IMG/VR virus record: IMGVR_UViG_3300033077_000655
Length of the DNA stretch: 64,000 bases
Strand: one strand, 5' to 3'
From: a virus
Lineage: Duplodnaviria; Heunggongvirae; Uroviricota; Caudoviricetes
The position numbers and the translations under genes are program-made. Below are positions 32,920 through 54,409 of this stretch, piece after piece; positions within the stretch are counted from its first letter, which is position 1, and the number at the start of each line of letters is the position of its first letter. The notes under the pieces are model-generated. The model searched no databases and was not told the DNA's origin. It saw nothing but the letters and a program-made list of their open reading frames with translations.

Positions 32920-32994
32920 GGGACCTTAGCTCATGTTGGTTAGAGCAGCAGACTCATAATCTGTTGGTGCTGTGTTCGACTCACAGAGGTCCCA
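32920..32994 (+). tRNA. tRNA-Met (anticodon CAT)
   Basis: Perfect acceptor GGGACCT/AGGTCCC; D arm GCTC...GAGC; anticodon loop CTCATAA; T arm CTGTG-TTCGACT-CACAG; CCA encoded. Confidence 0.8.
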
Positions 32995-33216
32995 CCATTT
33001 TTCACAAGGATACATTATGAAAGTACAATTTGCACCTGGAGCATTTGATGATTTTGATGGCACTCAGGAAGAACTGGATGCCTTGATAGCAGAACTTGAA
33101 GAAATGTTCAAATCCATGACTTCCGAAGAACTTGCTGCACAAAGCACGGAAGTTGATTTTGCGGATCTTCCAGATCGTGTGCAAGCCGATCTCCAGGATG
33201 AACCACGTACTTTGCA

Positions 33217-33617: not shown

Positions 33618-34289
33618 ATGGGTACGATGCCCATATCATCAAAACCTTTAATTGCCTTGTTCTCTCACCATCCAGAATGCAGCAATCAAAGCTGTAATGG
33701 GGTGGAGCAGAGCCTGGGCAGTCACTATCGTGTACAGAGATTCAACGAAAAAACCCTAAATTCAGACTTGTTGGCACAATCAGCAATGGTTGTGTTTCCG
33801 GGTGGGATTGGTGAGGCTGATCGCTACTACGATTTCTTCCTGCGCAAACGAGCCAACATGATAGCTGATTTTGTAGAATCGGGCGGCAGGTACTTGGGTA
33901 TTTGCATGGGAGCATACTGGGCCGGACATTGGTTTTTTGATATTCTGCAGGACGTAAAGTGCGAACAATACATCAAACGCCCAGGTGCCGATGTACGTAG
34001 AAGTTATGGCACTGTTACTCCAATCAACTGGCAAGGACAACAGCATAACATGTTCTTTTGGGACGGATGTGCCTTGATTGGTGATGAGACCAAATTTACC
34101 ACTGTGGGTCGCTATGCAAATGGTGACCCAATGGCCATAATCCAAAACAGAGTCGGAGTGATTGGTTGCCACTTGGAAAGTACCCGATTATGGTATCAAA
34201 AACCTTGGCAATATCTAGCACCACACTGGCATCACGGGCTGCATCATCAACTGTTGTTGCAATTTACCCACACACTGATGTCAACATAG
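33618..34289 (+). CDS. class-I glutamine amidotransferase-like fold protein (weak)
   Basis: VFPGGIGEAD...LGICMGAYWAG resembles the GATase1 nucleophile-elbow context. Confidence 0.3.
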   Translation: MGTMPISSKPLIALFSHHPECSNQSCNGVEQSLGSHYRVQRFNEKTLNSDLLAQSAMVVFPGGIGEADRYYDFFLRKRANMIADFVESGGRYLGICMGAYWAGHWFFDILQDVKCEQYIKRPGADVRRSYGTVTPINWQGQQHNMFFWDGCALIGDETKFTTVGRYANGDPMAIIQNRVGVIGCHLESTRLWYQKPWQYLAPHWHHGLHHQLLLQFTHTLMST

Positions 34290-34290: not shown

Positions 34291-34319
34291 TTGACTATAA
34301 TAGTCCTATGCTATATAAT
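34291..34319 (+). promoter_or_regulatory. promoter TTGACT-N17-TATAAT
   Basis: TTGACT at 34291-34296 and TATAAT at 34314-34319, upstream of the 34308 ORF. Confidence 0.45.
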
Positions 34320-34554: not shown

Positions 34555-35124
34555 TTGGCCAAACAAAACGGAAATAATATGAAAACTTGGGTAACATCAG
34601 ACTTACACTTTGGGCACAAAAATATCATGAGTTTTTGTCCTAACACCCGTGCGCGGTTTCGCAACGACGTTGCATACATGAACGAACAAATGGTGATCGA
34701 ATGGAATGCCATGATTGCTCCTGAAGATACTGTTTACATCCTAGGCGATGTGGCATTCTTGCCAGCGGCCAAAGCAGCAGAATACATGATGCGTTGCAAT
34801 GGCAACAAGATCCTGATTGAAGGCAATCACGATCGCAAGACCTTGCAGGATAATGGATTCCGTGCATGTTTTCGAGAAGTCCACAAGTATCTGGATGTGC
34901 AGTTCAACGAAATCAAAGTTGTGATGTTTCACTATCCTATTGCAGAATGGGATCAAATGCATCGCGGTGCTGTTCACTTGCACGGTCATTTGCACGGTGG
35001 TGTAAGTGGATTGGAGCGATATCGCGCTGTGGATGTGGGTATGGATTCCACTGGTGCAATTGCCATCTCCATGGACGAAGCAATTCGACTTGGCCTAAAG
35101 GGTGCAATCAAAGGACATCATTAA
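34555..35124 (+). CDS. calcineurin-like metallophosphoesterase
   Basis: DLHFGH, ILGDVAF and GNHD motifs. Confidence 0.7.
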   Translation: MAKQNGNNMKTWVTSDLHFGHKNIMSFCPNTRARFRNDVAYMNEQMVIEWNAMIAPEDTVYILGDVAFLPAAKAAEYMMRCNGNKILIEGNHDRKTLQDNGFRACFREVHKYLDVQFNEIKVVMFHYPIAEWDQMHRGAVHLHGHLHGGVSGLERYRAVDVGMDSTGAIAISMDEAIRLGLKGAIKGHH

Positions 35125-35971
35125 CATGATCACTGATATCATCGGCCGTGAAATTCAAGTGGATAACTTGACCGTATCAGCCTTGTCTTTTTATCAGACA
35201 CAATATGCTAATATAAAAACAGTGCGAGATTATTTTTCTTGGATGGACAACTATGAAAATCTCATAGACATTCTAGGTCCCGATGTATATAAAATTTCTA
35301 AGTTAGCAACCAGCATCACCATTAGAGAATACAAAATAGAGCATGTTGCCACAGTCACATCCCCAACTCTAATAGATCTAGCTAATAAAATCTCCAAAGA
35401 CAACAAGCATATTACTGCTTCAAATAGTTCTTTTGATACCAACTATCTAGGTGGTGAGCATGCTATGCAAAAAGCCGCAGGATTCAATTCGATAACACAC
35501 AGTATAATCAATCCTGTAGCGTATCCTGAATTATTAACCATAGCACAAGCATTTGATCTAGAGCATTGTGCCGTAGCAATACAATATCAACCAACTGCTT
35601 GTATTTTTCCAGCACATGTGGATACTATGTTGACCATGTGGCGGAACATAGCTGCTAGCGATCCTACAGTATTAGATTTGCCATTTGATGTGTCCACAAA
35701 GTCAATAAAAGGAATGACATCTATTAGGTTGTTGTTGGCACTGACTGATTATGTACCCGGGCATGTGTTAGGAGTAGATGATCAATATTGGACCAATTGG
35801 AAAATTGGAGATGCAGTGGTATTTGATAATTGTAATCGAATGCACTACACAGCAAATACTGCATGGGTTCCTAGGGTGTTTTTAAGAATCAGTGGCATGA
35901 TCAATAACTCATCAGACCATTGGATCATCAATAACATCAACCAACACTTGGTCAAGCAGATACAATTATAA
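35102..35971 (+). CDS. hypothetical protein, possible 2OG-Fe(II) oxygenase-like
   Basis: PAHVDT (HxD) and a later His. Weak. Confidence 0.3.
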   Translation: MQSKDIINMITDIIGREIQVDNLTVSALSFYQTQYANIKTVRDYFSWMDNYENLIDILGPDVYKISKLATSITIREYKIEHVATVTSPTLIDLANKISKDNKHITASNSSFDTNYLGGEHAMQKAAGFNSITHSIINPVAYPELLTIAQAFDLEHCAVAIQYQPTACIFPAHVDTMLTMWRNIAASDPTVLDLPFDVSTKSIKGMTSIRLLLALTDYVPGHVLGVDDQYWTNWKIGDAVVFDNCNRMHYTANTAWVPRVFLRISGMINNSSDHWIINNINQHLVKQIQL

Positions 35972-35977
35972 ATTGTC

Positions 35978-37282
35978 ATGGAATTTTTTATAATATTTCT
36001 TGCAATTCCAATAGGACTCTTGGTAGGAATGTTGCCAGCAATAGGAGACAGCGTGATGATGATCATGCTATATCCATTTGTAGCACATTTAGAATTCAAC
36101 ACTTTGATTGCATTTTATGCTACTATGATCACGTGTGGGCAGTTTAGCTCAAGTGTAGTTGGGCTGTGGCTTGGCCTTGCTGGTGATGTCACAGCCATTC
36201 CAGTTCTTAAAGAACGACGAGAAATCATCAACTCCAACTTGTTATGGACTGCATTGTATAGGACCGGGCAGGCTAGTGCTATTGCCACGTTAGCATCTGT
36301 AGCAATGCTGAGCTTGTTAATTCAGTTTGGTACTGAATTTCGATATTTTCTTCGCACAGATGTATTTTTTGTCATTATAGTTATGGTAGCAGTTTCTGCA
36401 CTGGCTTGGTCTGGAAATAAATTCAAAACAAATTTACTATTGTGCTTGATTGGTCTAGTAGGTAGCTTGATTGGATACAATCAGTTTTTAGGTAAATCTA
36501 TCCTGACCATGGGGGTAGAATTTTTGGTCAATGGCTTGCCTTTCCTTCCTATACTGTTAGGCATGTATGCCATCCCTATGTTGTTTGCTGCCATGGCAGA
36601 TATGTCCAATGCAAGTCCAGTGGATCACACCAAAATTGATACTAGTCAACCTATACAATTAGTACCTGCAGCAGTGATGGCCCGAGGTACTATCATTGGA
36701 TTTTTAACAGGGCTATTGCCGTTGATTGGAGTAACAGTAAGTGCTGCTACTGCACATTTTGTTGAATCCAAAATCAAATCTAGCACAGCACTGACAAGAA
36801 TAAGTTCAGCAGAAGCAGCTGACAATGCGGCTGTGATATCTGTGCTGTTTCCATTATTGGTATTTGGTGTGGCAATACAACCAAGTGAGGCCATAGTGGT
36901 CAATTTGCTGACTGATCGCGGATGGTCAATTAACCAACTCAAAGCAGACACTTATTTGAAAATGGGCGTGGGTATATCAGTTGGAGTGGTGGCATGTCTT
37001 GCATTTTGTGTGCATTATATTGTTCAGATGATCAACTGGTTTACCAGATATTACCAATATGTATTTTATTTTATTTTTGCATTGATAGCATGTGATGTTT
37101 GGTATTTGGGCATGGACTCAGACCGATCAGTCTTTTACATGATTGTTTTTGCAATTTCCACGGTGGTGGGATATTTTTTGTACAAGAAAAAAATTGATCC
37201 AGTTCCAATGATTTTTGTATGGATGCTGGGTCCGTATTTTTGGCCGACTGCATATAGACTTTTACAGCTATATGTTTTATAA
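35978..37282 (+). CDS. polytopic membrane protein, TctA-family-like transporter subunit
   Basis: At least 10 hydrophobic segments; N-terminal GLLVGMLPAIGDS resembles the TctA GxLPGxG signature. Confidence 0.5.
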   Translation: MEFFIIFLAIPIGLLVGMLPAIGDSVMMIMLYPFVAHLEFNTLIAFYATMITCGQFSSSVVGLWLGLAGDVTAIPVLKERREIINSNLLWTALYRTGQASAIATLASVAMLSLLIQFGTEFRYFLRTDVFFVIIVMVAVSALAWSGNKFKTNLLLCLIGLVGSLIGYNQFLGKSILTMGVEFLVNGLPFLPILLGMYAIPMLFAAMADMSNASPVDHTKIDTSQPIQLVPAAVMARGTIIGFLTGLLPLIGVTVSAATAHFVESKIKSSTALTRISSAEAADNAAVISVLFPLLVFGVAIQPSEAIVVNLLTDRGWSINQLKADTYLKMGVGISVGVVACLAFCVHYIVQMINWFTRYYQYVFYFIFALIACDVWYLGMDSDRSVFYMIVFAISTVVGYFLYKKKIDPVPMIFVWMLGPYFWPTAYRLLQLYVL

Positions 37283-37302
37283 TTAACTAGAAAGGATACT
37301 CT

Positions 37303-38166
37303 ATGATTAAAAAACTATTAACCGTCGTGACTGCAATGGTTATCGCTGCCGGTGCGTCCGCAGCTGACAAAACATTTACATTTTTAATTCCTTGGGGTGG
37401 CGGTTCAAATGATCAAAATATTGCCGAACTACTAACCCCCGGCCTTAAACAACTGGGATGGGATACATCGATTGTTTTGTACAATGGCAATTGTGCAGCT
37501 ATGGCACAGGATCTTAAAAATACCAAAAAACCAACAATAGCAGTGTGGTCTAATAGAGACCATTTGTTGCCTCTTGATCACGAATGCTATCTTGTGCCAC
37601 CTACTGCACAAAATATGATATCAATTTGGTATTATGCACCCGATTATCTTTGTGCTGTTGGTAAGACTGCACCTGATGCTATTTTTACCACGCCCGGTAC
37701 ATATCGTATTAGTGTACAGTCATTCCCGAGCACTTTGAATTGGGTCACTGATGCTATCAAATCTGTCAGCCCCGGCACAGTCAAAACTGTAATCTACAGC
37801 GGTAGTGGAGCGCAGATCCGTGCCGCTGCTGCACAAGAAACTGAGTATGTGTTAGGAACGTCAGGCAAGGTCATTGAACGCAATGGTCAAGCTGTATGTA
37901 CTCACAATACCGGCCCGACTGAGTCACTGGGCACACGCCCACTGGGAGAGATCAACCAAAGTGTAATGAATTATTACATGATGGTTTATGCTTCTTCCAA
38001 AAATATTCCTGCTAATCTTCAAACTGAACTACGTTCTGATATGGCTCGTTTGTTGCAAACCCAACTGCTACAAGATTATTTTAAGACCAGACAGTTTATA
38101 ACAAAAATGTCTACAGCATCAACCGACGAACAAGTTAACTTTTTGGTGAAATCAATTAAAAAATAA
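37303..38166 (+). CDS. periplasmic solute-binding protein, TctC/Bug-family-like
   Basis: Signal peptide MIKKLLTVVTAMVIAAGASA; FLIPWGGGSNDQNIAELLTPGLKQLG resembles the TctC PxxGGxxD...LG motif. Confidence 0.5.
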   Translation: MIKKLLTVVTAMVIAAGASAADKTFTFLIPWGGGSNDQNIAELLTPGLKQLGWDTSIVLYNGNCAAMAQDLKNTKKPTIAVWSNRDHLLPLDHECYLVPPTAQNMISIWYYAPDYLCAVGKTAPDAIFTTPGTYRISVQSFPSTLNWVTDAIKSVSPGTVKTVIYSGSGAQIRAAAAQETEYVLGTSGKVIERNGQAVCTHNTGPTESLGTRPLGEINQSVMNYYMMVYASSKNIPANLQTELRSDMARLLQTQLLQDYFKTRQFITKMSTASTDEQVNFLVKSIKK

Positions 38167-39218
38167 TGCACTACGTCAATGATACAAAAATTGTATATTC
38201 TCAATGGGATATCAACTACACTACTGATTATAAGTTTGTGTTAGGCAACGGGTTTGACAATTACAAATTCTCAATCAATCGGGCTATTAGTTTTGAACAT
38301 GCAGTTAGAGATCATCTGATTCAACTGAGAGATCAACATTCGTATTTGCGTTTTTGGTTTTCGGGTGGACCAGACTCGCGTATAGTTCTTGATACTGCCT
38401 ACAAATACAATATTGCGTTTGACGAAATTGTAATGATTCGATATACCCCGACTGATCCACTGGTTGTGTTTTGTAATTTGGCCGAAGTTGATCGATGTGC
38501 TATTCCAATTGCACACAACTACAAAGAAAAATTTGTGTCAACTAAGTTAACAGTAATCAATTGCGACAACAATTATTTTAATTGGTTTTACACTGCCCCT
38601 GAGTGGCACAAGAAGTTCATGCATTTTTGCTATGTAGAGCCGGGTATGATGAAAGGCATCTATGAATACAATCGATGTTATCCCATACTGGATGATGTAA
38701 ATCCGTTTGATTTATTTGGATTTCAACAGCCTACCATATGGTTTGACACAGATCAACAATGTTGGAAATTTTTATACATTGATAGAACATTTAATCAAAT
38801 CATGGATACTCCAGAATCAATTTGCACTGGTTCAGGATCTGCTGTTCTAAATGCATATCTGTCAGAACTTATACCAAAGTTTGAGTCACTGGGATACTTT
38901 CCAAAAAAATTCAAAGAGACTATCACTGGTAGAGAACAAAAAAATATGTTGTCTTTGTTTCAAAATTTAACATATCCTGCCGGGGCAATTCTTATGCCCA
39001 AGAAATCCCATCAACTACAAAAAACATATCCCACTGCTGATAAATTTTGGTATGCAACCGGTGATTTTTCTGACGAACTACACACATTGATATTTTATGG
39101 ACTAGATCAACGTCCAAGTTCTTTTGAAAACTGGGCGTTTAAATCCAACTGGGATGAAATTTTAATCAATCTCCGCAGAGGTGGAATTTTATCTCAAGAG
39201 TTTATATTTCAAACTTGA
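38166..39218 (+). CDS. PP-loop ATP pyrophosphatase-like protein (QueC/asparagine-synthase-like?)
   Basis: LRFWFSGGPDSRIVLD (SGGxDS PP-loop). Confidence 0.4.
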   Translation: MHYVNDTKIVYSQWDINYTTDYKFVLGNGFDNYKFSINRAISFEHAVRDHLIQLRDQHSYLRFWFSGGPDSRIVLDTAYKYNIAFDEIVMIRYTPTDPLVVFCNLAEVDRCAIPIAHNYKEKFVSTKLTVINCDNNYFNWFYTAPEWHKKFMHFCYVEPGMMKGIYEYNRCYPILDDVNPFDLFGFQQPTIWFDTDQQCWKFLYIDRTFNQIMDTPESICTGSGSAVLNAYLSELIPKFESLGYFPKKFKETITGREQKNMLSLFQNLTYPAGAILMPKKSHQLQKTYPTADKFWYATGDFSDELHTLIFYGLDQRPSSFENWAFKSNWDEILINLRRGGILSQEFIFQT

Positions 39219-39234
39219 TTGTAATGCAGCCCGG

Positions 39235-39263
39235 TTGACCAGAATTGCCCGTTCTGCTATAAT
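39235..39263 (+). promoter_or_regulatory. promoter TTGACC-N17-TATAAT (GTTGACCAGAATTGCCCGTTCTGCTATAAT family)
   Basis: TTGACC at 39235-39240 and TATAAT at 39258-39263. Confidence 0.55.
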
Positions 39264-39482
39264 ATACACATAAACAGAGATAGGAGCATATGATGACTGA
39301 AGACGACATCCGCAAAGTTTCCGCAGAACACGGGCTAACATCCAAGAGTTCAGCTGATGAAATCCGTCAAGTGTTTCCCAACCTGCCCGAACACGGTGCA
39401 TTTCCGGAGTTTCGTATCCTGCGATTGATCGACGGTATTCCTGGATTCCGGTTGGATCATTCGTTTCGTTAAGGAGTCAATT

Positions 39483-39986
39483 ATGACCATGGTAGAAAGA
39501 GCCCGAGTATTTGCCACCGCTGCCCACGCTGCGGTTGGACAAGTGCGTAAGTATACATTTGAGCCGTACATTATGCATCCTGCCGAAGTTGCAGGCATTG
39601 TTGCAACTGTGCCACATACAGATGTGATGTTGGCTGCTGCTTGGTTGCACGACACAGTGGAAGACACTGGTGTTAGCATTGTGGATATCCAAAAAGAATT
39701 TGGCAATGAGGTTGCATCCTTAGTCAGCTGGTTGACTGATGTCAGTGAGCCAGAACAAGGCAACAGGGCTGTTCGCAAAGCCATAGACCGTGAGCATACT
39801 GCAATGGCACCTGCCGCTGCACAAACTGTGAAGTTGGCTGACTTGATCGCCAACAGTCGCAGCATCTTGGCACACGACCCTGCATTTGCAAAAGTGTATT
39901 TGGAAGAAAAGCGCATGTTGTTGGAAGTATTAACCCGCGGTGACGCCACATTGATGGTTCAAGCCCGACAGATTGTAGGAGCATAA
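39483..39986 (+). CDS. HD-domain phosphohydrolase, SpoT/Mesh1-like (p)ppGpp hydrolase candidate
   Basis: RKYTFEPYIMHPAEVAGIV...AAWLHDTVEDT matches the SpoT N-terminal HD motif. Confidence 0.65.
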   Translation: MTMVERARVFATAAHAAVGQVRKYTFEPYIMHPAEVAGIVATVPHTDVMLAAAWLHDTVEDTGVSIVDIQKEFGNEVASLVSWLTDVSEPEQGNRAVRKAIDREHTAMAPAAAQTVKLADLIANSRSILAHDPAFAKVYLEEKRMLLEVLTRGDATLMVQARQIVGA

Positions 39987-40365
39987 AATGTCCGACAAAG
40001 AATTGTCTGTTCTGGAAAAAGCCCAGCGTGAGGTAGAGTTGTTGGAGTGGTCCATGAGCTCTGTCAAAATCGCTGGGCAGGCACACCAACGCATGTACCA
40101 CACTGCTCACATTCCGCTAAATTATCGATCTGCCATTGATGCACTAGAGACACAACTGTGCGGAGCACAGGCCTTGCTGAAACGAATTGAAACTTTAGTA
40201 CGCTAACATGAAACCTGAAAAGTTTGCTGAGTTGTTAGACGAGATTGAAGAATTCATTGGTGAACACAATCTCAGCAATCCACACTATTTATTTGATGAA
40301 GAAATTATCAAATATTTCTCACATTACAAAAAGAAGCATGTTAAACGAGCATTAGAGGAATTAAG

Positions 40366-41256
40366 ATGAACAAAGAACTATTGAAAGAGTTTGTGCTAGC
40401 CAACCCACGGTTGGTTAGTATGAAGCCTGCTGGCGATGGTATCTTTGTGCTCAAGTACAAGAAGGCTGTGTTCTACGACAACTTGTGGAATGACTTTTTG
40501 GAAGAATGTCGCGGTACAATTGTTGACATTGACTTTAATGTGGTGTCACGTCCATTCACAAAGATCTACAACTACGGTGTAGAAGCCAAGGCTCCTGTGC
40601 TGAGTGAAGATACTGTGGTAGAATGCTTTCGTAAGGTCAATGGCTTTATGGTTGCAGTGACTTGGCACGACGGTCGACTGCTGGTATCCACAACTGGATC
40701 CACATCTGGTGACTTTGTAGACATGGCCAACTCCTTCATTGACCGGCGTCGCGGCACCTTTGAACGGTATGTGAGTGGCTTCCCTGACTTGACTTTTATG
40801 TTTGAATGTGTGCATGCAAATGATCCACACATCATTGTAGAAAAGCCAGGACTGTACTTGCTGGGCTATCGTAAAAAGACTTGGGAAAGCCGTAGCGAAA
40901 ACGATGGACTCAGCCTGTATCACCAATATGCATTGTCAGACCACGTGGTAGAATGGAAGCGTTGTACTCTGGGCGAACTAGTACAGGAAGTGAAAACTGT
41001 TCGGCATGAAGGTTTTGTAGTATATGCTAACGACTATACTACATCCTTCAAGATCAAAAGCCCATACTACCTAACTGCAAAGTGGGTGGCACGTAACCCT
41101 CGCACCGACAAACTGATGACACAAGAATTCCGAGAACAATTGGATGAAGAGTATTACCCGCTGCTGGAGCACATCCGTGCTAACATAGAGGCTTATACTG
41201 TTATGGATGAACAAGCACGCCTGGCCTGGGTGCGTGAATATTTGGAGATGGTATGA
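40366..41256 (+). CDS. rnlA: RNA ligase 1 (T4 RnlA-like)
   Basis: LEECRGTIV...SRPFTKIYN aligns with T4 RnlA ALECRGIMF...SRPMEKFFN; KVNGFM matches motif I KxDG; EGFVVY matches motif IV. Confidence 0.7.
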   Translation: MNKELLKEFVLANPRLVSMKPAGDGIFVLKYKKAVFYDNLWNDFLEECRGTIVDIDFNVVSRPFTKIYNYGVEAKAPVLSEDTVVECFRKVNGFMVAVTWHDGRLLVSTTGSTSGDFVDMANSFIDRRRGTFERYVSGFPDLTFMFECVHANDPHIIVEKPGLYLLGYRKKTWESRSENDGLSLYHQYALSDHVVEWKRCTLGELVQEVKTVRHEGFVVYANDYTTSFKIKSPYYLTAKWVARNPRTDKLMTQEFREQLDEEYYPLLEHIRANIEAYTVMDEQARLAWVREYLEMV

Positions 41257-41468: not shown

Positions 41469-41712
41469 AAATATCTTTAACTTTTTTGCCAAAATACTGT
41501 AAAAAAATCAATCTTAGAGGTTGACAAGGTATAAATAAACATATACAATACATGCTATGAGACACTCGATACATCATTTAACACTCAAATCACTGACACC
41601 AAGTCAGGGCACCTGCCCCGCCTTGTGGTTTGCGATTGAGATGAATTATGATCGCGGGGCCTGGGTCCAAGGAGACCGAGTATAACAAAATAGCATACTC
41701 AACTTCCAAGGA

Positions 41713-41984: not shown

Positions 41985-42743
41985 ATGTCCGTATTCTTAG
42001 ACTCAGTGATAGAGTTCTACATCACCAATCAATGCAACCTAGCCTGCACCAACTGCAATAGGTTCAATGATCACGATTTCCGTGGTCACTACTATTGGGA
42101 GGATTCTGCACCTGCTGTCACAGCATGGAGTCAACGTATCAATGCATCAATGATAGTGATCATTGGCGGTGAACCCAGCTTGCATCCTGGGTTAGAAACT
42201 TGGGTGATGAATCTTCGCAGATTATGGCCGGACACCACAATCATGATTCAGAGTAATGGCACTAATGCAAAAATAGCAAAAGATCTCGACTCTTACAGCA
42301 AGTACCATGTGGGATGGGGTATAAGTGTACATCGTCCTGAGATGCGACCTGCATTAGAACGACAATGGGGCAACCTTATTGACAACACAGAATTTACCCC
42401 GGCTGCAATTATTCCGCAAGGTGATGCATTTGTTGTTCATCAGAGCAATCCGATAACTGCATTCAAAGCCTGCACCATGCGGCATAGTCACACTGTATTC
42501 AAAGGAAAACTGTACAAGTGTCCTGTGATGGCTGTGCTGCCAGAGTTCCGCACACAGCAATCAGTAATCATGGATACCAGGCAAGAACAGTTGTTGGCTC
42601 AGTATCAACCATTGAGTGCGGACTGTACTGAGCAACAGTTGACGGACTTTGTAGACACAAGAAATCAACCCATTGATCAATGTGAATTTTGCCCTGGTGA
42701 ATTTGATTTCCAGCCAGTGGTATTTCACAAAAGAAAAAAATAA
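41985..42743 (+). CDS. radical SAM protein (single Cx3Cx2C cluster)
   Basis: FYITNQCNLACTNCNRF...IIGGEPSLHPGL. Confidence 0.5.
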   Translation: MSVFLDSVIEFYITNQCNLACTNCNRFNDHDFRGHYYWEDSAPAVTAWSQRINASMIVIIGGEPSLHPGLETWVMNLRRLWPDTTIMIQSNGTNAKIAKDLDSYSKYHVGWGISVHRPEMRPALERQWGNLIDNTEFTPAAIIPQGDAFVVHQSNPITAFKACTMRHSHTVFKGKLYKCPVMAVLPEFRTQQSVIMDTRQEQLLAQYQPLSADCTEQQLTDFVDTRNQPIDQCEFCPGEFDFQPVVFHKRKK

Positions 42744-42744: not shown

Positions 42745-42819
42745 GCCCTTGTGGACAAATTGGCAAAGTCGCTTCTCTCAAAAGGAAGAGTTCTCTCGGT
42801 TCGAGTCCGAGCAAGGGTA
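42745..42819 (+). tRNA. tRNA, anticodon CAA (Leu by anticodon) but without a long variable arm
   Basis: Acceptor GCCCTTG/CAAGGGT; anticodon arm CTTCT-CTCAAAA-GGAAG; T arm CTCGG-TTCGAGT-CCGAG; CCA encoded. Confidence 0.5.
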
Positions 42820-42830
42820 CCAAAATTTAT

Positions 42831-42901
42831 AGGCGTGTGGTGTAATGGTAACACAACAGACTTTGACTCTGTCGTTCTAGGTTCGAGCCCTGGCACGTCT
42901 G
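42831..42901 (+). tRNA. tRNA-Gln (TTG)
   Basis: Acceptor AGGCGTG/CACGTCT; anticodon arm ACAGA-CTTTGAC-TCTGT; T arm CTAGG-TTCGAGC-CCTGG. Confidence 0.7.
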
Positions 42902-42930
42902 CCATGTAACAAAGACCCTTCAAACAGGAA

Positions 42931-43090
42931 GGGCTTTACAAAACAAGTTGACCAGTATCGCACATGGTGTTATACTAGAGACTAGTTAGAAAGCAACAAG
43001 ATTTGCAAAGTCCTTCCAAGTTGTAGGGCTTTACAAAACAAGTTGACCAGTATCGCACATGGTGTTATACTAGAGACTAGTTAGAAAGCA
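42931..43090 (+). repeat. two copies of a 65-bp direct repeat, each carrying a TTGACC-N17-TATACT promoter
   Basis: Copy 1 at 42931-42995 and copy 2 at 43026-43090 are identical over 65 bp. Promoter hexamers at 42948-42953/42971-42976 and 43043-43048/43066-43071. Confidence 0.7.
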
Positions 43091-43406
43091 GCACAGTGCA
43101 TCGACACTGTGCAGCAAGGTTCATTAAAAATTCAATTTTGTATAGTGTACCCAGATTCAGTTCTGGGCACTATATGTAAACATATTAGGTTACCTACACC
43201 GTTAGGTAGTTTAAGAAAGGAGCAACAGGGGCACCTGACGCAATCTTAGACCACATGAAATAGGGTACTCTTGCGTAGCTGAGAGACCACCCGGAAAAGC
43301 GACGGACTATGTAGGAAGTAATGACCGCAACAGCCTGTGAGAGATGCGCTTACAAGTGGACATAGAGTTGCAATGGTTCCTTAATGTGTTTTCATATAGT
43401 GATTTT

Positions 43407-43478
43407 GCTGCATTCGTCTATCGGTTAGGACAGCGGGTTTTCAGTCCGCTAAGAGGAGTTCGACTCTCCTATGCAGTA
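43407..43478 (+). tRNA. tRNA-Glu (TTC)
   Basis: Acceptor GCTGCAT/ATGCAGT; anticodon arm GCGGG-TTTTCAG-TCCGC; T arm AGGAG-TTCGACT-CTCCT; CCA encoded. Confidence 0.7.
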
Positions 43479-43487
43479 CCAAATTTA

Positions 43488-43559
43488 GGTGCGTTCATAT
43501 AACGGTCATTATCCTGGATTGTCTATCCAGAGACGGGAGTTCGACTCTCCCACGCATCG
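43488..43559 (+). tRNA. tRNA-Asp (GTC)
   Basis: Acceptor GGTGCGT/ACGCATC; anticodon arm CTGGA-TTGTCTA-TCCAG; T arm GGGAG-TTCGACT-CTCCC. Confidence 0.7.
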
Positions 43560-43658
43560 CCAAGTTAATGGAGAAGCGGGTGCTGCGGCATCTGTTATCC
43601 ACCATACATTAACGTCCGCTTTCCTGGCGAGTGTTATAAATACTTGTAGGAGAACACT

Positions 43659-44060
43659 ATGAGTATATCGAATGAAAAGGGAGAAATAGGAGAAGCGGCA
43701 TTTGTGCTTGCTTCTGCTAAACAAGGATACTGGACTGGTAAAATGCCACAAGGGTGTCCTTATGATTATGTGTTAGATAGACATGATGGAAAACTTTTAA
43801 GAGTTCAAGTCAAATTTAGATCGTTAGAAAGTAACGGAGTAGTTACTATTAAGCTAACGCAAAACACATTCACAAACAGAGTTTCTTACAACAAAAGCAA
43901 CATTGATTATATAGCAGTTTATGTAAATGAATTAGATAAAGTATATCTTATACCTATTACAGAAATATGTGATGTGAAAGAAGTTAAACTTCGTTGTATA
44001 GAATCTATAAAAAGAAAAGATAATAACTCTCGTATAATAACAGAATACGCAGAGTGGTAA
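43659..44060 (+). CDS. small PD-(D/E)XK-like nuclease candidate
   Basis: GEIGE...PYDYVLD...LRVQVK resembles an E...PD...(E/Q)xK arrangement. Weak. Confidence 0.3.
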   Translation: MSISNEKGEIGEAAFVLASAKQGYWTGKMPQGCPYDYVLDRHDGKLLRVQVKFRSLESNGVVTIKLTQNTFTNRVSYNKSNIDYIAVYVNELDKVYLIPITEICDVKEVKLRCIESIKRKDNNSRIITEYAEW

Positions 44061-44063
44061 TTT

Positions 44064-44135
44064 GGCCGTGTAACTCAGAGGCAGAGTAATCCCTTGATAA
44101 GGGATAAGTCGACATTTCGAAATTGTCCATGGCTA
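44064..44135 (+). tRNA. tRNA-Ile (GAT)
   Basis: Anticodon arm ATCCC-TTGATAA-GGGAT; atypical T arm GACA-TTTCGAAAT-TGTC (9-nt loop, or a T·T closing pair). Confidence 0.6.
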
Positions 44136-44148
44136 CCAATTAAATAAT

Positions 44149-44232
44149 GGAGTAGACGCCTGAGAGGAAGGGCACCCGGCTGTAACCCGGAGGTCAGCAA
44201 GTTCTGTAGAGGTTCGAACCCTCTCTGCTCCA
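44149..44232 (+). tRNA. class-II tRNA, anticodon GTA (Tyr-like)
   Basis: Acceptor GGAGTAG/CTGCTCC; anticodon loop CTGTAAC on a CCGG/CCGG stem; variable-arm hairpin CAGcaagttCTG; T arm AGAGG-TTCGAAC-CCTCT. Confidence 0.6.
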
Positions 44233-44244
44233 CCAATATAATAC

Positions 44245-44315
44245 ATCCTCCTAGTGTAATGGCAGCACTACAGTCTCCAAAACTGTCAGTCAAGGTTCGA
44301 GTCCTTGGGTCGATG
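44245..44315 (+). tRNA. tRNA-Trp (CCA)-like with two acceptor-stem mismatches
   Basis: Anticodon arm ACAGT-CTCCAAA-ACTGT; T arm CAAGG-TTCGAGT-CCTTG; acceptor ATCCTCC/GGTCGAT has C·C and T·T mismatches. A better copy lies at 52169. Confidence 0.4.
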
Positions 44316-44326
44316 CCAAACAATAT

Positions 44327-44398
44327 GGGGGCAGCAGAGGGCTGCGGAGTTGCCTTGCAAGCATCTTGTCTAGAGGGGTTCGATACCCCCGGCCTCCA
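44327..44398 (+). tRNA. tRNA-Ala (TGC)
   Basis: G3·U70 wobble in the acceptor GGGGGCA/GGCCTCC; anticodon loop CTTGCAA; T loop TTCGATA. Confidence 0.65.
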
Positions 44399-44516
44399 CC
44401 AATTTTCGGAGACTGAAACTTGCTACTTGCATCCTCTTAGATCAGGGCAAAGGCAAGCGGATAAAGTGGACGGCACATGGGGCATGCCTGTGTGTAGGCT
44501 GTCTCCATCTTTTTAT

Positions 44517-44587
44517 GCGGGGTTCGTATAGTGGTAATACCTTAGCCTTCCAAGCTAAAGCGAGGAGTTCGATTCTCCTACCCCGCT
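44517..44587 (+). tRNA. tRNA-Gly (TCC)
   Basis: Perfect acceptor GCGGGGT/ACCCCGC; anticodon arm TTAGC-CTTCCAA-GCTAA; T arm GAGGAG-TTCGATT-CTCCT. Confidence 0.85.
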
Positions 44588-44598
44588 CCAAGTTTAAT

Positions 44599-44672
44599 CT
44601 GTGTTTAGCTCAGTCTGGTAGAGTTCTTGGCCTGGAACCAAGGGGTCGTAGGTTCGAATCCTACAGCGCAGA
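44599..44672 (+). tRNA. tRNA-Pro (TGG)-like
   Basis: Anticodon arm CTTGG-CCTGGAA-CCAAG (C at position 33 is unusual); T arm GTAGG-TTCGAAT-CCTAC. Confidence 0.6.
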
Positions 44673-44680
44673 CCAATTAA

Positions 44681-44767
44681 GGAACGGTCCCATAATGGCA
44701 TTGGAGAAGATTGCTAATCTTTCGATCGTAGTAATACGGTTTCTGAGTTCGAGTCTCAGTCGTTCCG
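44681..44767 (+). tRNA. tRNA-Ser (GCT), class II
   Basis: Acceptor GGAACGG/TCGTTCC; anticodon arm GAAGA-TTGCTAA-TCTTT; variable-arm hairpin CGTAgtaaTACG; T arm CTGAG-TTCGAGT-CTCAG. Confidence 0.8.
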
Positions 44768-44777
44768 CCAATACAAT

Positions 44778-44850
44778 GCCGCGGTAGCTCATCAGGTAGA
44801 GCAGCAGACTGAAAATCTGTGTGTGGCTGGTTCGAGTCCAGCTCGTGGTA
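44778..44850 (+). tRNA. tRNA-Phe (GAA)
   Basis: D arm GCTC-ATCAGGTA-GAGC; anticodon arm GCAGA-CTGAAAA-TCTGT; T arm GCTGG-TTCGAGT-CCAGC. Confidence 0.7.
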
Positions 44851-45325
44851 CCAAGTTTATCCCTGCGTGGTGTACAAGTAGCACGACGCCGTATACACGT
44901 AAGCAGTAAGCGCAATTCTTACTCGCAGGGGCCAAGTTTATGTGTGAGAGCCGGATTAGTGACGGTGCCGATGTAGTTCGGTGAAAGGGTGAGCGAACCC
45001 ACCCCCACACACCAAGTTTTGCACCTGGCGTAATGGAAGCGTTACAGGTTAGTATCGAAAGATATACCCGAGAGGCGATGCGGGGGGTGCAGGGTTCGAT
45101 TCCCTGCGGTGCATTCAAGTTTTGTAAGTGTCAGCAAGAGAAAGACTCGCTGGGAAGATTCTTCGAAGGTCAACCCAGTGTAAAAGTAGATCCGGTTCAA
45201 ATCCGGCTAGGCTACGGAGCGTCTATGTCAGAGTATCCCAAGTGACGGACCACCTACCGTCCGGACTAGTGCATTCGGTTAAAAGGTTGCGATAACAGTG
45301 GCGCAACTACTTGCAAATTCAATCT

Positions 45326-45406
45326 GGAGATGTGGCAGAGTGGCCGATTGCGACAGACTGTAAATCTGTTCTTAACAGCGCGGTGGTTCGAATCCATCCG
45401 TCTCCA
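45326..45406 (+). tRNA. tRNA-Tyr (GTA), class II
   Basis: Acceptor GGAGATG/CGTCTCC; anticodon arm ACAGA-CTGTAAA-TCTGT; 12-nt variable region; T arm GGTGG-TTCGAAT-CCATC. Confidence 0.7.
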
Positions 45407-45433
45407 CCACACAAGAGATATATAAAGTATTAT

Positions 45434-45506
45434 TCCGACGAAGCAAACACGGTGTGGGCAGAGGACTGTTAATCCTTGAAGGCTGGTTCGATTCCAGCGG
45501 TCGGAG
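45434..45506 (+). tRNA. tRNA-Asn (GTT)-like with a weak D arm and a 7:66 mismatch
   Basis: Anticodon arm GAGGA-CTGTTAA-TCCTT; T arm GCTGG-TTCGATT-CCAGC. Confidence 0.45.
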
Positions 45507-45516
45507 CCAAATTCAA

Positions 45517-45587
45517 GCCCTATTAGTATAATGGCATTATCACGGTTTTGTAATCCGTTGACGGGAGTTCGATTCTCTCATGGGGCA
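45517..45587 (+). tRNA. tRNA-Thr (TGT)
   Basis: Acceptor GCCCTAT/ATGGGGC; anticodon loop TTTGTAA; T arm GGGAG-TTCGATT-CTCTC. Confidence 0.65.
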
Positions 45588-45595
45588 CCATACAT

Positions 45596-46245
45596 ATGAA
45601 AAAAGCATTGATATTAGGATGTAGTCATTCAGTAGGAGAGGAGATGAGTAAAGAACCAGGATTGGTTTTTAATGATTTGGCTCAGGCCACAGACTACGAG
45701 ATAACCCACTGTTATCCTGCACAAATTGCCCGAAAGCTGGGATATACCGCGTCAATCGAGGTATATCCGGAGGCAGTAACGATGCCATGTTTAGATTGTT
45801 TTTAAATGGGACATTAACACCCAACGACATAGTAATTGCTTGTTGGTCCGGAGTAGATCGAAGTGAAGTCTATGATAAAACATGGTTGCAATTATGCCCG
45901 GGTGCTCCAATACCAAAAGAAATTACTTCCGACTACTTTAAACAATGGTTGTTGTATTCAGCTAATACCGAAGTAGGTATGTTAAATAAAACAAAAAACA
46001 TACTAGCACTTAATGCATTGGCTCACGCACAAGGCATACGAGTCATAAACATAGATAGTTTTTGGCCTGTTAATTTTTGGCCTATAGTAAATTACGTCTG
46101 GCCCAACACAGTAAAATGGGCTGTGGACATTGATTTTATGTCGTGGTGCCAACGACACAACTTTCCTCATACAGAAAGAGTTCATTTTTTTAAACCAGCA
46201 CATGATTCGTTTGCCGAACATGTGCTAGAGAATATCGCGGAGTAG
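45596..46245 (+). pseudogene. SGNH-like hydrolase gene split by a frameshift in a T5 run (ORFs 45596-45805 and 45787-46245)
   Basis: ILGCSHSVGEE N-terminus parallels NGDSHTAGAE of the 22066 ORF. The two frames abut at gtttttaaa (about 45798-45803). Confidence 0.4.
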
Positions 46246-46311
46246 GGGAGTCTAGCCGTCCCCGCCAGTCTCATAAGCTGGAGATCGCAGGTGCGAATCC
46301 TGCCTCCGCAA
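46236..46311 (+). tRNA. tRNA-Met (CAT) with a C1·A72 mismatch, initiator-like
   Basis: CGCGGAG...CTCCGCA-A acceptor with unpaired C1/A72; D stem GGGG/CCCC; anticodon loop CTCATAA; T arm GCAGG-TGCGAAT-CCTGC; CCA encoded. Confidence 0.65.
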
Positions 46312-46387
46312 CCAAGTCAAGTCCATGCGTCACTCACTTTGACTGAGTGTTTGTTCCGTTATTGGAGAGTCTCTGGACTGTTTTTTT

Positions 46388-46461
46388 ACCGCCTTGGCTC
46401 AATTGGATAGAGCACTGGATTACGAATCCGGGGGTTGGGAGTTCGAATCTCTCAGGTGGTA
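46388..46461 (+). tRNA. tRNA-Arg (ACG)
   Basis: D arm GCTC-AATTGGATA-GAGC; anticodon arm CTGGA-TTACGAA-TCCGG; T arm GGGAG-TTCGAAT-CTCTC. Preceded by a T7 run. Confidence 0.75.
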
Positions 46462-46474
46462 CCAAAAATAACGG

Positions 46475-46503
46475 TTGACAACTACCGCAAAAGGTTGTAT
46501 AAT
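46475..46503 (+). promoter_or_regulatory. perfect-consensus sigma70 promoter TTGACA-N17-TATAAT
   Basis: TTGACA at 46475-46480 and TATAAT at 46498-46503. Confidence 0.6.
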
Positions 46504-46617
46504 TAACACATAAACAAAAAGGAACTATATGAAGCCAACAGCTAAACTATAGTGTCAATCATAGATCCCGTATATGGTCTTGGGTTGGCACATTAAAGAC
46601 AATTTGATATGCACAAC

Positions 46618-46689
46618 CCATGCTAAACTTTAGTGGTGAAGTAACCGGCTCTTAACCGGAGGAACAGAGTTCGAGTCTCTGAGCATGGA
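46618..46689 (+). tRNA. tRNA-Lys (CTT)
   Basis: Acceptor CCATGCT/AGCATGG; anticodon loop CTCTTAA; T arm CAGAG-TTCGAGT-CTCTG. Confidence 0.65.
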
Positions 46690-46696
46690 CCATATA

Positions 46697-46768
46697 CGGG
46701 GTATAATTCAATGGTTAGAATAGCCGGCTTTTAACCGGTCTATCACGGTTCGAGTCCGTGTGCCCCGA
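46697..46768 (+). tRNA. tRNA-Lys (TTT)
   Basis: Acceptor CGGGGTA/TGCCCCG; anticodon arm GCCGG-CTTTTAA-CCGGT; T arm CACGG-TTCGAGT-CCGTG. Confidence 0.75.
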
Positions 46769-46927
46769 CCATATAAAAACATACTGTGAGGCGCTAGTTG
46801 CATGGCGAATTTAAACAGAATGCAACCCGTCATGTAATAAGTGTACATAAAGATGATGAGCAGTGTGTTTTTATATGGTAAAACAGGAGTAATTACCCTG
46901 CACCATAATCGGGAGTCATGACCCGAT

Positions 46928-47027
46928 GAACTCGTAGTGATGGAATGGTCAAACATAGGCCTCTTATCGGGCCGGTGGAGTTAAATGCCCACTTGCAGGT
47001 TTCGAAATCCTGCCTACAATGAGTTCG
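46928..47027 (+). ncRNA. 100-nt tRNA-like RNA of unclear identity
   Basis: GAACTCG...TGAGTTC-G-CCA acceptor-like pairing; T-arm-like GCAGG-TTTCGAAAT-CCTGC; internal hairpins; no canonical anticodon arm found. Confidence 0.35.
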
Positions 47028-47110
47028 CCATATAAAAACACATTTTTAACTAGGCATGCCCCTGCAAGGGTTTAACAGCAGTTTTGAGTGTGTTTCTATA
47101 TGGTTTTATG

Positions 47111-47181
47111 TTGGCCATGGTGTAATGGAAGCACCCGACTCTGTGAAAGTCGTAGCATGGGATCGTTACCCATTGGTCAAC
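47111..47181 (+). tRNA. tRNA-His (GTG)
   Basis: G-1 at 47110 and discriminator C; anticodon arm CGACT-CTGTGAA-AGTCG; T arm ATGGG-ATCGTTA-CCCAT (A at position 54). Confidence 0.7.
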
Positions 47182-47364
47182 CCAAATTAAAGATTGTTTA
47201 TAAAACGCAAAGCTAGATTCACGTTGGTAAAATAACGCAACTGAGCTTCGGCCGTAAACACATCATACACGATGATGCAGCAAACACCGATATCGCTTAG
47301 GCTTAGATGAAAATTCAAGCCCTGTGGTGTTAGGTTTTGATAGCGTCTCACACAAGTATTTATT

Positions 47365-47436
47365 GGTCATGTGGCGTAGATGGATGCGCACCGCCCTCAT
47401 AAGGCGAGGAGGTTGGATCGATACCAACCATGACCA
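47365..47436 (+). tRNA. tRNA-Met/Ile2 (CAT)
   Basis: Perfect acceptor GGTCATG/CATGACC; anticodon loop CTCATAA; T arm GTTGG-ATCGATA-CCAAC. Confidence 0.7.
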
Positions 47437-47440
47437 CCAT

Positions 47441-47513
47441 GCCCTGGTGACGGAATGGCATACGTACTGGTCTTAGAAACCAGGTTCTGTGGGTTCGAGT
47501 CCCACCTAGGGCA
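47441..47513 (+). tRNA. tRNA with anticodon TAG (Leu by anticodon) but class-I length
   Basis: Acceptor GCCCTGG/CTAGGGC; perfect anticodon arm CTGGT-CTTAGAA-ACCAG; T arm GTGGG-TTCGAGT-CCCAC. Confidence 0.6.
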
Positions 47514-47526
47514 CCATGATTAGTTT

Positions 47527-47598
47527 GGGGGATTGATATAGTTGGAAACATACTGTCATGGCATGGCAGCATCAGCAGTTCGAATCTGCTATCCTCCA
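47527..47598 (+). tRNA. tRNA-Ala (GGC)
   Basis: G3·U70 in the acceptor GGGGGAT/ATCCTCC; anticodon arm CTGTC-ATGGCAT-GGCAG; T arm AGCAG-TTCGAAT-CTGCT. Confidence 0.7.
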
Positions 47599-47668
47599 CC
47601 AACGCAGACTCTTGGTTCAATGGTAGAACGGTATTACTATAAATAGTATTCTACCATTGGAGAATAAG

Positions 47669-48055
47669 ATGCCAAAACCAAAAATCCATCCTCGCATATA
47701 TAATTGTATTCATTGTGGAACAGAGAATGAATGGACCACAAAAAAGAATAATAAGTTTTGTAACCATTCTTGTCAGCAAAATTATAGATGGATAAATGAA
47801 ACAAAACCATTGATAGAATCTGGGAAAAAAAATACAAACAATTTTAGAGCCTTACTAAAATATGTCAAAGAACGAGATGGCTATAAATGTAAAATTTGTG
47901 ATTTAACCAATTGGCAAGGAAACCCTATATCATTGGATTTAGATCACATAGATGGAAATAATAAAAACAATTTTCCAAGTAACCTACGATTGTTATGTCC
48001 TAACTGTCATAGGCAAACTCCTACTTGGGGTAATAAAACTCGTTCTGGTCTATAG
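47669..48055 (+). CDS. HNH homing endonuclease
   Basis: LDLDHIDGNNKNN...LRLLCPNCH. Start set at the ATG at 47669, which has a GGAG RBS. Confidence 0.7.
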   Translation: MPKPKIHPRIYNCIHCGTENEWTTKKNNKFCNHSCQQNYRWINETKPLIESGKKNTNNFRALLKYVKERDGYKCKICDLTNWQGNPISLDLDHIDGNNKNNFPSNLRLLCPNCHRQTPTWGNKTRSGL

Positions 48056-48117
48056 ATTAGCGGTAAATCGTTACGTTGACATCGTAAAGATCACTGGTTC
48101 GATTCCAGTTAGACCAA
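48046..48117 (+). tRNA. tRNA-Val (GAC)
   Basis: Perfect acceptor TGGTCTA/TAGACCA; anticodon arm TTACG-TTGACAT-CGTAA; T arm ACTGG-TTCGATT-CCAGT. Overlaps the HNH stop. Confidence 0.75.
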
Positions 48118-48121
48118 CCAG

Positions 48122-48150
48122 TTGACAAGTATCACAAGTGATGCTATAAT
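48122..48150 (+). promoter_or_regulatory. consensus promoter TTGACA-N17-TATAAT
   Basis: TTGACA at 48122-48127 and TATAAT at 48145-48150; the spacer contains the palindrome ATCACAAGTGAT. Confidence 0.55.
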
Positions 48151-48358
48151 TGCAGCATGTTAAGAAATTAACATACGCTCATTAAAAATTTATTGATATA
48201 AAGACTGGAAACAGTCCAAGTCTTTATATCCACATGCACAAATGCCTTGCGCAGGCAGATGTAGCGGATTACAGCTCTGGTCAATCCGGGGTAGGCAGGT
48301 TCAATTCCTGCAAGTGTATGTGGATATAGAGATTTTGATAATTCAAAATAAAAAATTT

Positions 48359-48431
48359 GCCTGGTTGCGTAGAGAGGTTATACGTCTCCTTTACACGGAG
48401 AGCGATGACAGTTCGAGTCTGTCACCAGGTA
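48359..48431 (+). tRNA. tRNA-Val (TAC)
   Basis: Acceptor GCCTGGT/ACCAGGT; anticodon arm TCTCC-TTTACAC-GGAGA; T arm GACAG-TTCGAGT-CTGTC. Confidence 0.75.
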
Positions 48432-48438
48432 CCAATAT

Positions 48439-48513: not shown

Positions 48514-48523
48514 CCACATAATC

Positions 48524-48594: not shown

Positions 48595-48601
48595 CCAACA
48601 A

Positions 48602-48688: not shown

Positions 48689-48692
48689 CCAG

Positions 48693-54406: not shown

Positions 54407-54409
54407 CCA

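Follow-up and report, generated by a model that had tools for sequence, protein, structure and literature searches.

The gene considered here lies in a 64,000-nucleotide stretch of DNA from a tailed phage (IMG/VR record IMGVR_UViG_3300033077_000655; this whole stretch is called the window below) and encodes a single-domain hydrolase of the RelA/SpoT-homologue (RSH) family, that is, a small alarmone hydrolase (SAH), of 167 amino acids. At a probability of roughly 0.7, the reading that best accommodates the evidence is that the protein is an active and promiscuous SAH resembling PaSpo of Salmonella phage SSU5, which would cancel host responses based on RSH synthetases and would do so from within an island devoted to the supply and repair of tRNA. 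SAHs of phages are already well known, and the one in the window is another example of them, which adds no new kind of system. The new aspect is the fixed place of the gene among genes of tRNA repair, to which may be added a promoter-like site of host type and the fact that the lineage is very abundant in the environment.

A stand-alone RSH hydrolase with an intact active site

The SAH gene is an ATG-started open reading frame (ORF) at 39483..39986 (+) in the ORF listing of the window. A sequence-only reading of the same DNA had singled out the motif RKYTFEPYIMHPAEVAGIV...AAWLHDTVEDT in a stand-alone protein of this length and had likened it to the HD hydrolases SpoT and Mesh1. Both strings, RKYTFEPYIMHPAEVAGIV and AAWLHDTVEDT, are present in the translation as quoted, and the family is fully supported by matches to HD_4, to TIGR00691 and to the structures of Rel and Mesh1. 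Pfam HD_4 (PF13328) aligns with residues 7-131 at 57.5 bits against a gathering cut-off of 27.2 (E 1.7e-15), the other Pfam matches, HD and DUF305, both lying below cut-off; PHROG 990, 'metal-dependent phosphohydrolase', is matched at E 5.6e-41. The NCBIfam model of the spoT_relA N-terminal (hydrolase) region (TIGR00691) is matched at E 1e-21, and only over positions 3-122 of the 687 positions of this long-RSH model, which bears out the description of the protein as stand-alone. Among solved structures the best match is the hydrolase domain of Rel_Seq (1vj7, E 2.1e-15), followed by Rel of M. tuberculosis (5xnx) and of B. subtilis (6yxa); together with SpoT (7qpr), these hydrolase domains of long RSH enzymes span E 2e-15 to 1e-9. 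Further matches in the PDB are Lmo0812, Drosophila and human Mesh1 (3nqw/3nr1; E 7e-12 to 4e-10) and several bacterial SAHs. Unlike the long enzymes, the window SAH has no synthetase, TGS or ACT domain and hence none of the regulation that couples hydrolysis to the ribosome or to synthesis.

The sequence-only reading had made its proposal depend on the catalytic HD...ED residues, and these (H56-D57 and E60-D61) are kept on alignment, all of them invariant against Rel_Seq, human MESH1 and PaSpo, so that the family assignment stands. The alignment comprised seven sequences, including Rel_Seq, human MESH1 (identical to PDB 3nr1) and three phage homologues, PaSpo among them. Residue by residue, R22 and K23 correspond to R44 and K45 of Rel_Seq, H32 to H53, H56 and D57 to H77 and D78, E60 and D61 to E81 and D82, D120 to D144, and N124 to N148; relative to Rel_Seq there is a one-residue insertion after K23. 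The set of Mn2+ ligands (H32, H56, D57 and D120) is complete and invariant both in this alignment and in 33 environmental variants. Invariant across the seven sequences are also the catalytic dyad E60 D61 and the nucleotide-binding residues R22, K23 and N124, and likewise Y29, P33, T62 and K117. The guanine contacts of TtRel, R43, R44, N150 and T153, are represented by R22, K23, N124 and S127.

Given that these guanine contacts are kept and that the signature Asp of Aph1 is replaced by Arg, hydrolysis of (p)ppGpp is to be expected of the predicted enzyme. The same residue speaks against an enzyme specific for (p)ppApp, of the type of Aph1 or SAH-Mex, which would confer immunity only against toxins that synthesise (p)ppApp. 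Aph1 is itself phage-encoded and of the same superfamily, and it does appear among the PDB matches (7smg, E 0.007), although its similarity is the weakest of all of them; its specificity-determining D24, at the position of TtRel R43, is R22 in the window SAH, as in (p)ppGpp hydrolases, and no gene for a (p)ppApp synthetase adjoins. A specificity of this sort is thus highly improbable, and the Aph1-type (p)ppApp-only form of it was rejected on the signature residue.

Nor is the gene likely to be anything other than a working one. Purifying selection is evident in the ratio of non-synonymous to synonymous substitution rates (dN/dS 0.08-0.22, against eight orthologues with unsaturated dS), and 76 alignment columns are invariant across the 33 environmental variants. 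With catalytic residues intact and E-values reaching 1e-41, a catalytically dead remnant or a chance ORF is effectively refuted by these data, and nothing was found in its favour. An antisense ORF of 199 amino acids, 39350..39949 (-), overlaps the SAH gene; as a real gene it is unsupported, since homology and purifying selection both lie in the + frame. A Shine-Dalgarno sequence precedes the start codon of the SAH gene (Table 1), and GGAG is found at its position in most related loci as well.

Of the characterised relatives, PaSpo of Salmonella phage SSU5 (SSU5_099) stands nearest, with 45% identity over 154 amino acids and 123 bits, about twice the score of any solved RSH (at most 61 bits); the P. 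aeruginosa SAH 6yvc scores 22.8 bits. By pairwise similarity the predicted protein is thus closest to the PaSpo type. Both are stand-alone phage RSH HD-domain hydrolases with the full catalytic set, and they share the motifs GQ.RKYT, P(E/A).GNR and DP.F..(V/I)YL.EK, which are absent from Rel and Mesh1. They differ in length (213 amino acids in SSU5), an additional C-terminal segment of the SSU5 protein being missing from the window SAH. They differ also in setting: SSU5 is a 103-kb phage with no RNA-repair gene annotated near its SAH, whereas the window SAH sits in the RNA-repair and tRNA island of a jumbo phage. Human MESH1 (HDDC3; 3nr1, 5vxa), a single-domain SAH of 179 amino acids, has the same catalytic residues and hydrolyses (p)ppGpp and (p)ppApp and can remove pyrophosphate from tRNA; it is 31% identical to the window SAH, lacks the motifs of the phage clade, and NADPH has been proposed as its physiological substrate.

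A Mesh1-like NADPH phosphatase, shifting the NADP(H)/NAD(H) pool to the benefit of the phage, has to be considered. Human MESH1, with a PDB match of about 1e-10, has been reported as an NADPH phosphatase, and the complex of Mesh1 with NADPH is the top Foldseek match of the predicted structure. That structure is an all-helical AlphaFold2 model of low confidence (pLDDT 67, pTM 0.51), built on a shallow alignment of 33 sequences that are 78-100% identical, and the Foldseek scores against the PDB are weak (E >= 4e-3, TM about 0.4), with RSH hydrolases filling the top 21 places. The window SAH, however, scores far higher against PaSpo (123 bits) than against Mesh1 (about 47 bits), and its conserved neighbourhood contains no genes of NAD metabolism; such a role is very unlikely.

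In the mechanism favoured here, Mn2+ would be held by H32, H56, D57 and D120 and, with the E60-D61 dyad, the enzyme would hydrolyse the pyrophosphate carried on a ribose 3'-OH. Likely to be attacked are (p)ppGpp and, by analogy with PaSpo, (p)ppApp and tRNA whose 3'-CCA end has been pyrophosphorylated.

Conserved linkage to RNA-repair genes

The SAH gene of the window stands among genes for a calcineurin-like metallophosphoesterase, a kinase resembling polynucleotide kinase (Pnk), and two RNA ligases, of which one is of the T4 Rnl1 type and the other lies at the upstream edge of the neighbourhood (Table 1). Kinase, metallophosphoesterase and ATP-dependent RNA ligases thus co-occur around the SAH, the combination by which an RNA-repair module is recognised, the SAH itself apart. 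The kinase has T4 polynucleotide kinase (1ly1) and Pnkp1 (4xrp) as its best PDB matches, both at E about 4e-4, and also matches the N-terminal part of the kinase-ligase family phrog_8238. In the Rnl1-type ligase the KxxG lysine aligns with that of T4 RNA ligase 1 (2c5u), and PF09511 matches its orthologue in one related locus (L004). The second ligase is syntenic in twelve related loci (L001, L004, L011-L016, L019, L034, L035 and L038).

The persistence of this arrangement was assessed in 38 IMG/VR loci and in two further loci, L001 and L004, all searched with the window proteins, six metagenome loci having been fetched. The metallophosphoesterase is found just upstream of the SAH in L001, in L004 and in every one of the 31 IMG/VR loci with an SAH that reaches 69% identity to that of the window, and it is nearly always the adjacent gene. 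The exceptions are the window and L011/L012, in which a cassette of about 4.3 kb is inserted, and L039, in which the kinase gene lies between the two; the cassette is absent from this position in L001, L004, L013-L039 and L043. The distance between the Pnk-like kinase and the SAH stays within about 5 kb in every relative but L018, which is truncated on its upstream side, and the kinase may be upstream or downstream. The Rnl1-type ligase, which in the window begins 380 nucleotides 3' of the SAH, starts only 4-8 nucleotides after the SAH stop codon in many relatives (for example L011, L012, L017, L018, L020, L029, L036 and L037). At least eight distinct gene orders keep the SAH, metallophosphoesterase, kinase and Rnl1-type ligase together, and conservation is usually highest for the SAH; in L020 identity is 79% for the SAH, 73% for the phosphoesterase, 63% for the kinase and 57% for the ligase. 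An array of tRNA genes lies downstream of the SAH in the window, in L012 and in L013. From this we infer a functional association of the SAH with the metallophosphoesterase, the kinase and the Rnl1-type ligase. The lineage is also an abundant one, more than 120 metagenome protein clusters being 79-100% identical to the SAH, on contigs of up to 338 kb, and SAH homologues, which make up PHROG 990, occur in 237 phage records.

A synthetase partner was sought in the same neighbourhood. No RelA_SpoT synthetase domain was detected by Pfam or PHROGs in the ORFs flanking the SAH (starts at 38166, 39290, 39988, 40208 and 40366) or in the called genes of the relatives. The possibility that the SAH is a type IV antitoxin of an operon for a toxic small alarmone synthetase (toxSAS), of the ATfaRel type, was accordingly rejected, since no synthetase gene adjoins it.

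Possible roles in infection

Phage SAHs are thought to disarm defences built on synthetases of the RelA/SpoT type. Many phages and prophages encode them (Jimmy et al. 2020, PMC7229694), and the stand-alone SAHs of PVP-SE1 (PbcSpo) and SSU5 (PaSpo) neutralise all five toxSAS families tested, which for PaSpo are CapRel, PhRel, PhRel2, FaRel2 and FaRel; the same authors proposed that phages bypass alarmone-based defence by means of SAHs (PMC7229694). CapRel is a bona fide anti-phage system (PMC9712102). Four toxSAS families attach pyrophosphate to tRNA at its 3'-CCA end, and the SAHs MESH1 and ATfaRel reverse this and restore aminoacylation, an action on tRNA ends likened by the authors to the 3'-phosphatase activity of T4 Pnk (Kurata et al.). 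Likewise, PaSpo-SSU5 is said to take off the modification that FaRel2 places on tRNA (PMC11559606). By extension, the window SAH would cancel the stringent response and, above all, the abortive-infection toxSAS of the CapRel, PhRel, FaRel2 and FaRel kind. Because it is kept together with the metallophosphoesterase, the Pnk-like kinase, the two RNA ligases and 36 tRNA genes, it may be read as a tool for the upkeep of translation, one of a phage kit that would keep translation running.

What the main role is within this frame is less clear. Lowering (p)ppGpp on the one hand, and healing tRNA or countering toxSAS on the other, are inseparable by sequence, and each is a tentative candidate; the genomic context argues for the tRNA-centred reading. 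One possible form of the latter is a tRNA protection island of which the SAH is a working part, stripping from the CCA end the 3'-pyrophosphate placed there by toxins of the CapRel, PhRel or FaRel2 type. In such an island the metallophosphoesterase, the Pnk-like kinase and the Rnl1- and Rnl2-type ligases may mend tRNAs cut by nucleases, and downstream of them the window carries a full replacement set of tRNA genes and a gene for transfer-messenger RNA (tmRNA).

A narrower version would make the SAH a dedicated tRNA 3'-end healing enzyme, a member of the kinase, phosphoesterase and ligase pathway that removes the 3'-pyrophosphate and possibly a 3'-phosphate, with alarmone hydrolysis secondary. 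Its tight and persistent linkage to the three repair genes, with the Rnl1-type ligase so often starting directly after the SAH stop codon, favours this, as do the published activities of SAHs on CCA ends and of PaSpo-SSU5 on the FaRel2 mark, and the fact that 35 of the 36 phage tRNA genes encode CCA. Removal of a CCA 3'-pyrophosphate nevertheless requires neither a kinase nor a ligase, so that co-operation with them is unneeded; the SAH is an acidic protein (isoelectric point 5.6) with no evident additional RNA-binding domain; and the linkage is absent outside this lineage. As the main role it therefore remains doubtful. The known repair systems, T4 Pnk with Rnl1 and bacterial Pnkp/Hen1, are paralleled in the window by a Pnk-like kinase, a metallophosphoesterase and an Rnl1-type ligase encoded as separate genes. 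To our knowledge, neither system has been described as including an RSH-type hydrolase; the putative participation of the SAH in repair in the window is judged from its position.

The stringent-response idea put forward in the sequence-only reading is about as tentative when taken by itself. In this case the substrate in vivo would be host (p)ppGpp, and the SAH would keep host transcription and translation running, including the ppGpp-sensitive stable-RNA promoters that would drive the phage tRNA and tmRNA genes. ppGpp inhibits stable-RNA promoters in Proteobacteria, and the association of the SAH with 36 tRNA genes and a tmRNA gene, together with its promoter-like site of host type, is in keeping with such a function. 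So too are the guanine-contact residues, the absence of the Aph1 ppApp-only signature and the fact that, among solved structures, the long Rel enzymes match most strongly, through their (p)ppGpp hydrolase domains. On the other side, the host has its own SpoT, so that the added value of a second hydrolase is unclear; the invariant neighbours are RNA-end-processing enzymes and not transcription factors; the phage SAHs known so far were characterised by their neutralisation of toxSAS (PMC7229694); and a rise of ppGpp on infection has been described as not universal (PMC7229694).

With respect to expression, a sigma-70-type promoter-like site, a consensus match, lies 219 nucleotides 5' of the SAH ATG (Table 1), with a 60-codon ORF (39290..39472) between. 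A promoter of the same kind (10- to 12-of-12, and 11-12 in all but one) ends at most 40 nucleotides from the SAH start in 13 of 20 related loci. As a consensus match, the site suggests transcription by unmodified host RNA polymerase and hence early expression; the enzyme would then be made from a host-type promoter, probably early in infection. Sites scoring 11 of 12 are present at 34291..34319 and 41521..41549 as well as at 39235..39263. The first and the last of these three coordinates in map order flank the SAH site: that at 34291..34319, like the SAH site itself, lies in an intergenic gap before a gene block (an 89-amino-acid ORF with the phosphoesterase, and the 60-amino-acid ORF with the SAH, respectively), and that at 41521..41549 lies in the gap before a radical-SAM gene and the tRNA array, about 460 nucleotides 5' of the radical-SAM gene. 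Together the three matches suggest host-polymerase transcription units across the region.

Several observations weigh against a tRNA-centred, promiscuous hydrolase expressed in this way. The linkage of the SAH to RNA repair is confined to one phage lineage: no tRNA genes lie within 10 kb in the distant SAH loci L040-L048 (38-62% identity), no ligase was found among the flanking genes scanned in L040-L042, and no ligase or RNA-repair gene is annotated near the SAH in D6, SSU5, pVa-21 or V1VFA-S, where the neighbours are mostly hypothetical. The related loci are moreover not independent samples, and jumbo-phage genes of similar expression class cluster anyway. Proximity to tRNA genes also fits a plain (p)ppGpp role, and a low ppGpp level would be in the interest of a phage that carries 36 of them. 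The metallophosphoesterase and SAH could equally be a 'counter-nucleotide-signal' pair, as has been proposed for jumbo phages (PMC7824862). Furthermore, the total of such promoter sites in the scanned region is not above that of shuffled controls, and the structure model, being poor (pLDDT 67), gives no independent view of active-site geometry.

Jumbo phages had already been noted to carry an SAH-type enzyme, read as a counter-measure to alarmone-based host signalling (Iyer et al., PMC7824862). Both the protein and the phages of that survey are of the kind described here, and it places Atu_ph07 in its group 2.2; it files the enzyme under counter-nucleotide systems, and the RNA-repair linkage that is conserved in the window lineage goes unreported there. 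The literature searched contained no account of an SAH within an RNA-repair cluster. By its abundance and strong conservation, its intact active site, the host-type promoter that usually precedes it and its persistent place among tRNA-repair genes, the window SAH offers a testable case for the view that phage SAHs keep tRNA usable, beyond lowering (p)ppGpp. If it does belong to a tRNA protection island, this would be the first instance in which an RNA-repair gene cluster has recruited an RSH hydrolase, and it would provide evidence from a natural context that modified tRNA is a target of phage SAHs. If instead it is an ordinary (p)ppGpp/(p)ppApp hydrolase, its identification is a matter of routine annotation.

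Mapped features and the wider window

Table 1. Positions of the features discussed, in window coordinates.
Feature	Position	Strand	Evidence or remark
Second RNA ligase	27324..28337	+	PF09414 and PHA02142 OB domain, Pfam 1.9e-29 and 2.8e-29; phrog_968 E 6e-89
Pnk-like P-loop kinase	30671..31207	+	AAA_33 E 4e-18; phrog_505 polynucleotide kinase E 2e-11
tRNA-Met outside the array	32920..32997		ARAGORN
Calcineurin-like metallophosphoesterase, 189 amino acids	34555..35124	+	Pfam Metallophos 27.2 bits against cut-off 21.5; 1xm7 E 2.6e-8; phrog_547 E 2.9e-52
Cassette of about 4.3 kb between metallophosphoesterase and SAH	35102..39472	+	Also in L011/L012
TctA-family tricarboxylate transporter membrane protein, 434 amino acids	35978..37282	+	E 1.5e-39
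Sigma-70-type promoter-like site TTGACC-17-TATAAT	39235..39263	+	11/12 with TG extension; consensus match only
Shine-Dalgarno AAGGAG	39471..39476	+	Read from sequence; 6 nucleotides 5' of SAH ATG
SAH codons R22-K23	39546-39551	+	Invariant catalytic columns
SAH codon H32	39576-39578	+	Invariant catalytic column
SAH codons H56-D57	39648-39653	+	Invariant catalytic columns
SAH codons E60-D61	39660-39665	+	Invariant catalytic columns
SAH codon D120	39840-39842	+	Invariant catalytic column
SAH codon N124	39852-39854	+	Invariant catalytic column
T4 Rnl1-type RNA ligase, 296 amino acids, lysine motif K-V-N-G	40366..41256	+	phrog_562 E 1.1e-50; 2c5u E 2.2e-5
tRNA array	42745..55444	+	35/36 ARAGORN calls; downstream of the SAH-ligase block, after a radical-SAM gene
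tmRNA, betaproteobacterial two-piece type	62007..62386		RF01850, 125 bits; tag ANDSVYSLAA

The cassette that separates the metallophosphoesterase from the SAH is no part of SAH function. It contains a 289-amino-acid ORF, the TctA-family transporter, a 287-amino-acid ORF, a 350-amino-acid ORF and the 60-amino-acid ORF, the last of which went undetected in L011/L012. A TctA-family transporter is unusual in a phage; the 287-amino-acid ORF has an apparent signal peptide, and the 350-amino-acid ORF has an SGGPDS (PP-loop-like) motif and no family match. Between the kinase and phosphoesterase genes lies a gene (33618..34289) whose product carries a biotin-protein-ligase N-terminal (class I glutamine amidotransferase-like) domain. 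Around the SAH, both in the window (29662..29874 and 39988..40206) and in relatives, there recur small paralogous ORFs of about 70-85 amino acids that have no family match; several tandem copies are present in L001 (7125..8337), and one copy in the window begins 1 nucleotide after the SAH stop codon.

The window comes from a jumbo phage, and nearly all of its long ORFs are on the + strand. Its T4-type DNA polymerase shares 46-49% identity with the enzymes of Sinorhizobium phage Phosso and Agrobacterium phage Atu_ph07, and a megablast of positions 37000-43000 against 50,697 phage records returned no DNA match. The 36 tRNA genes called by ARAGORN cover all 20 amino acids. One call within the array (48234..48320, 'Cys-aca', without CCA) is unconfirmed by Rfam, which adds a tRNA at 48692..48764. 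At gathering thresholds Rfam reported tRNAs and tmRNA only, and neither a ppGpp nor a PRPP riboswitch. The two-piece form of the tmRNA suggests a betaproteobacterial host.

Three large B12-binding radical-SAM proteins are encoded at 16459..18465 (668 amino acids), 48784..50310 (508 amino acids) and 50508..52154 (548 amino acids), and two smaller radical-SAM-like ORFs at 41985..42743 and 20082..20945; two of the five genes are interleaved with the tRNA array, and the proteins may modify RNA, DNA or metabolites. The small protein of 41985..42743 has a faint QueE-like PHROG match and, together with a GTP cyclohydrolase I homologue (13763..14551, E 5e-38), hints at a pathway of the 7-deazaguanine or pterin type. 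A set of sugar-modification genes in 55585..59251 and 11060..13184, comprising a C-methyltransferase (PF08484), a GMA12/MNN10-like glycosyltransferase, an NAD-dependent epimerase/dehydratase, a nucleotide-sugar epimerase (phrog_540) and a group-1 glycosyltransferase, may serve glycosylation of DNA or of the virion. Finally, an RNaseH_like (PF04308) protein is encoded at 52260..52742, within the tRNA array.

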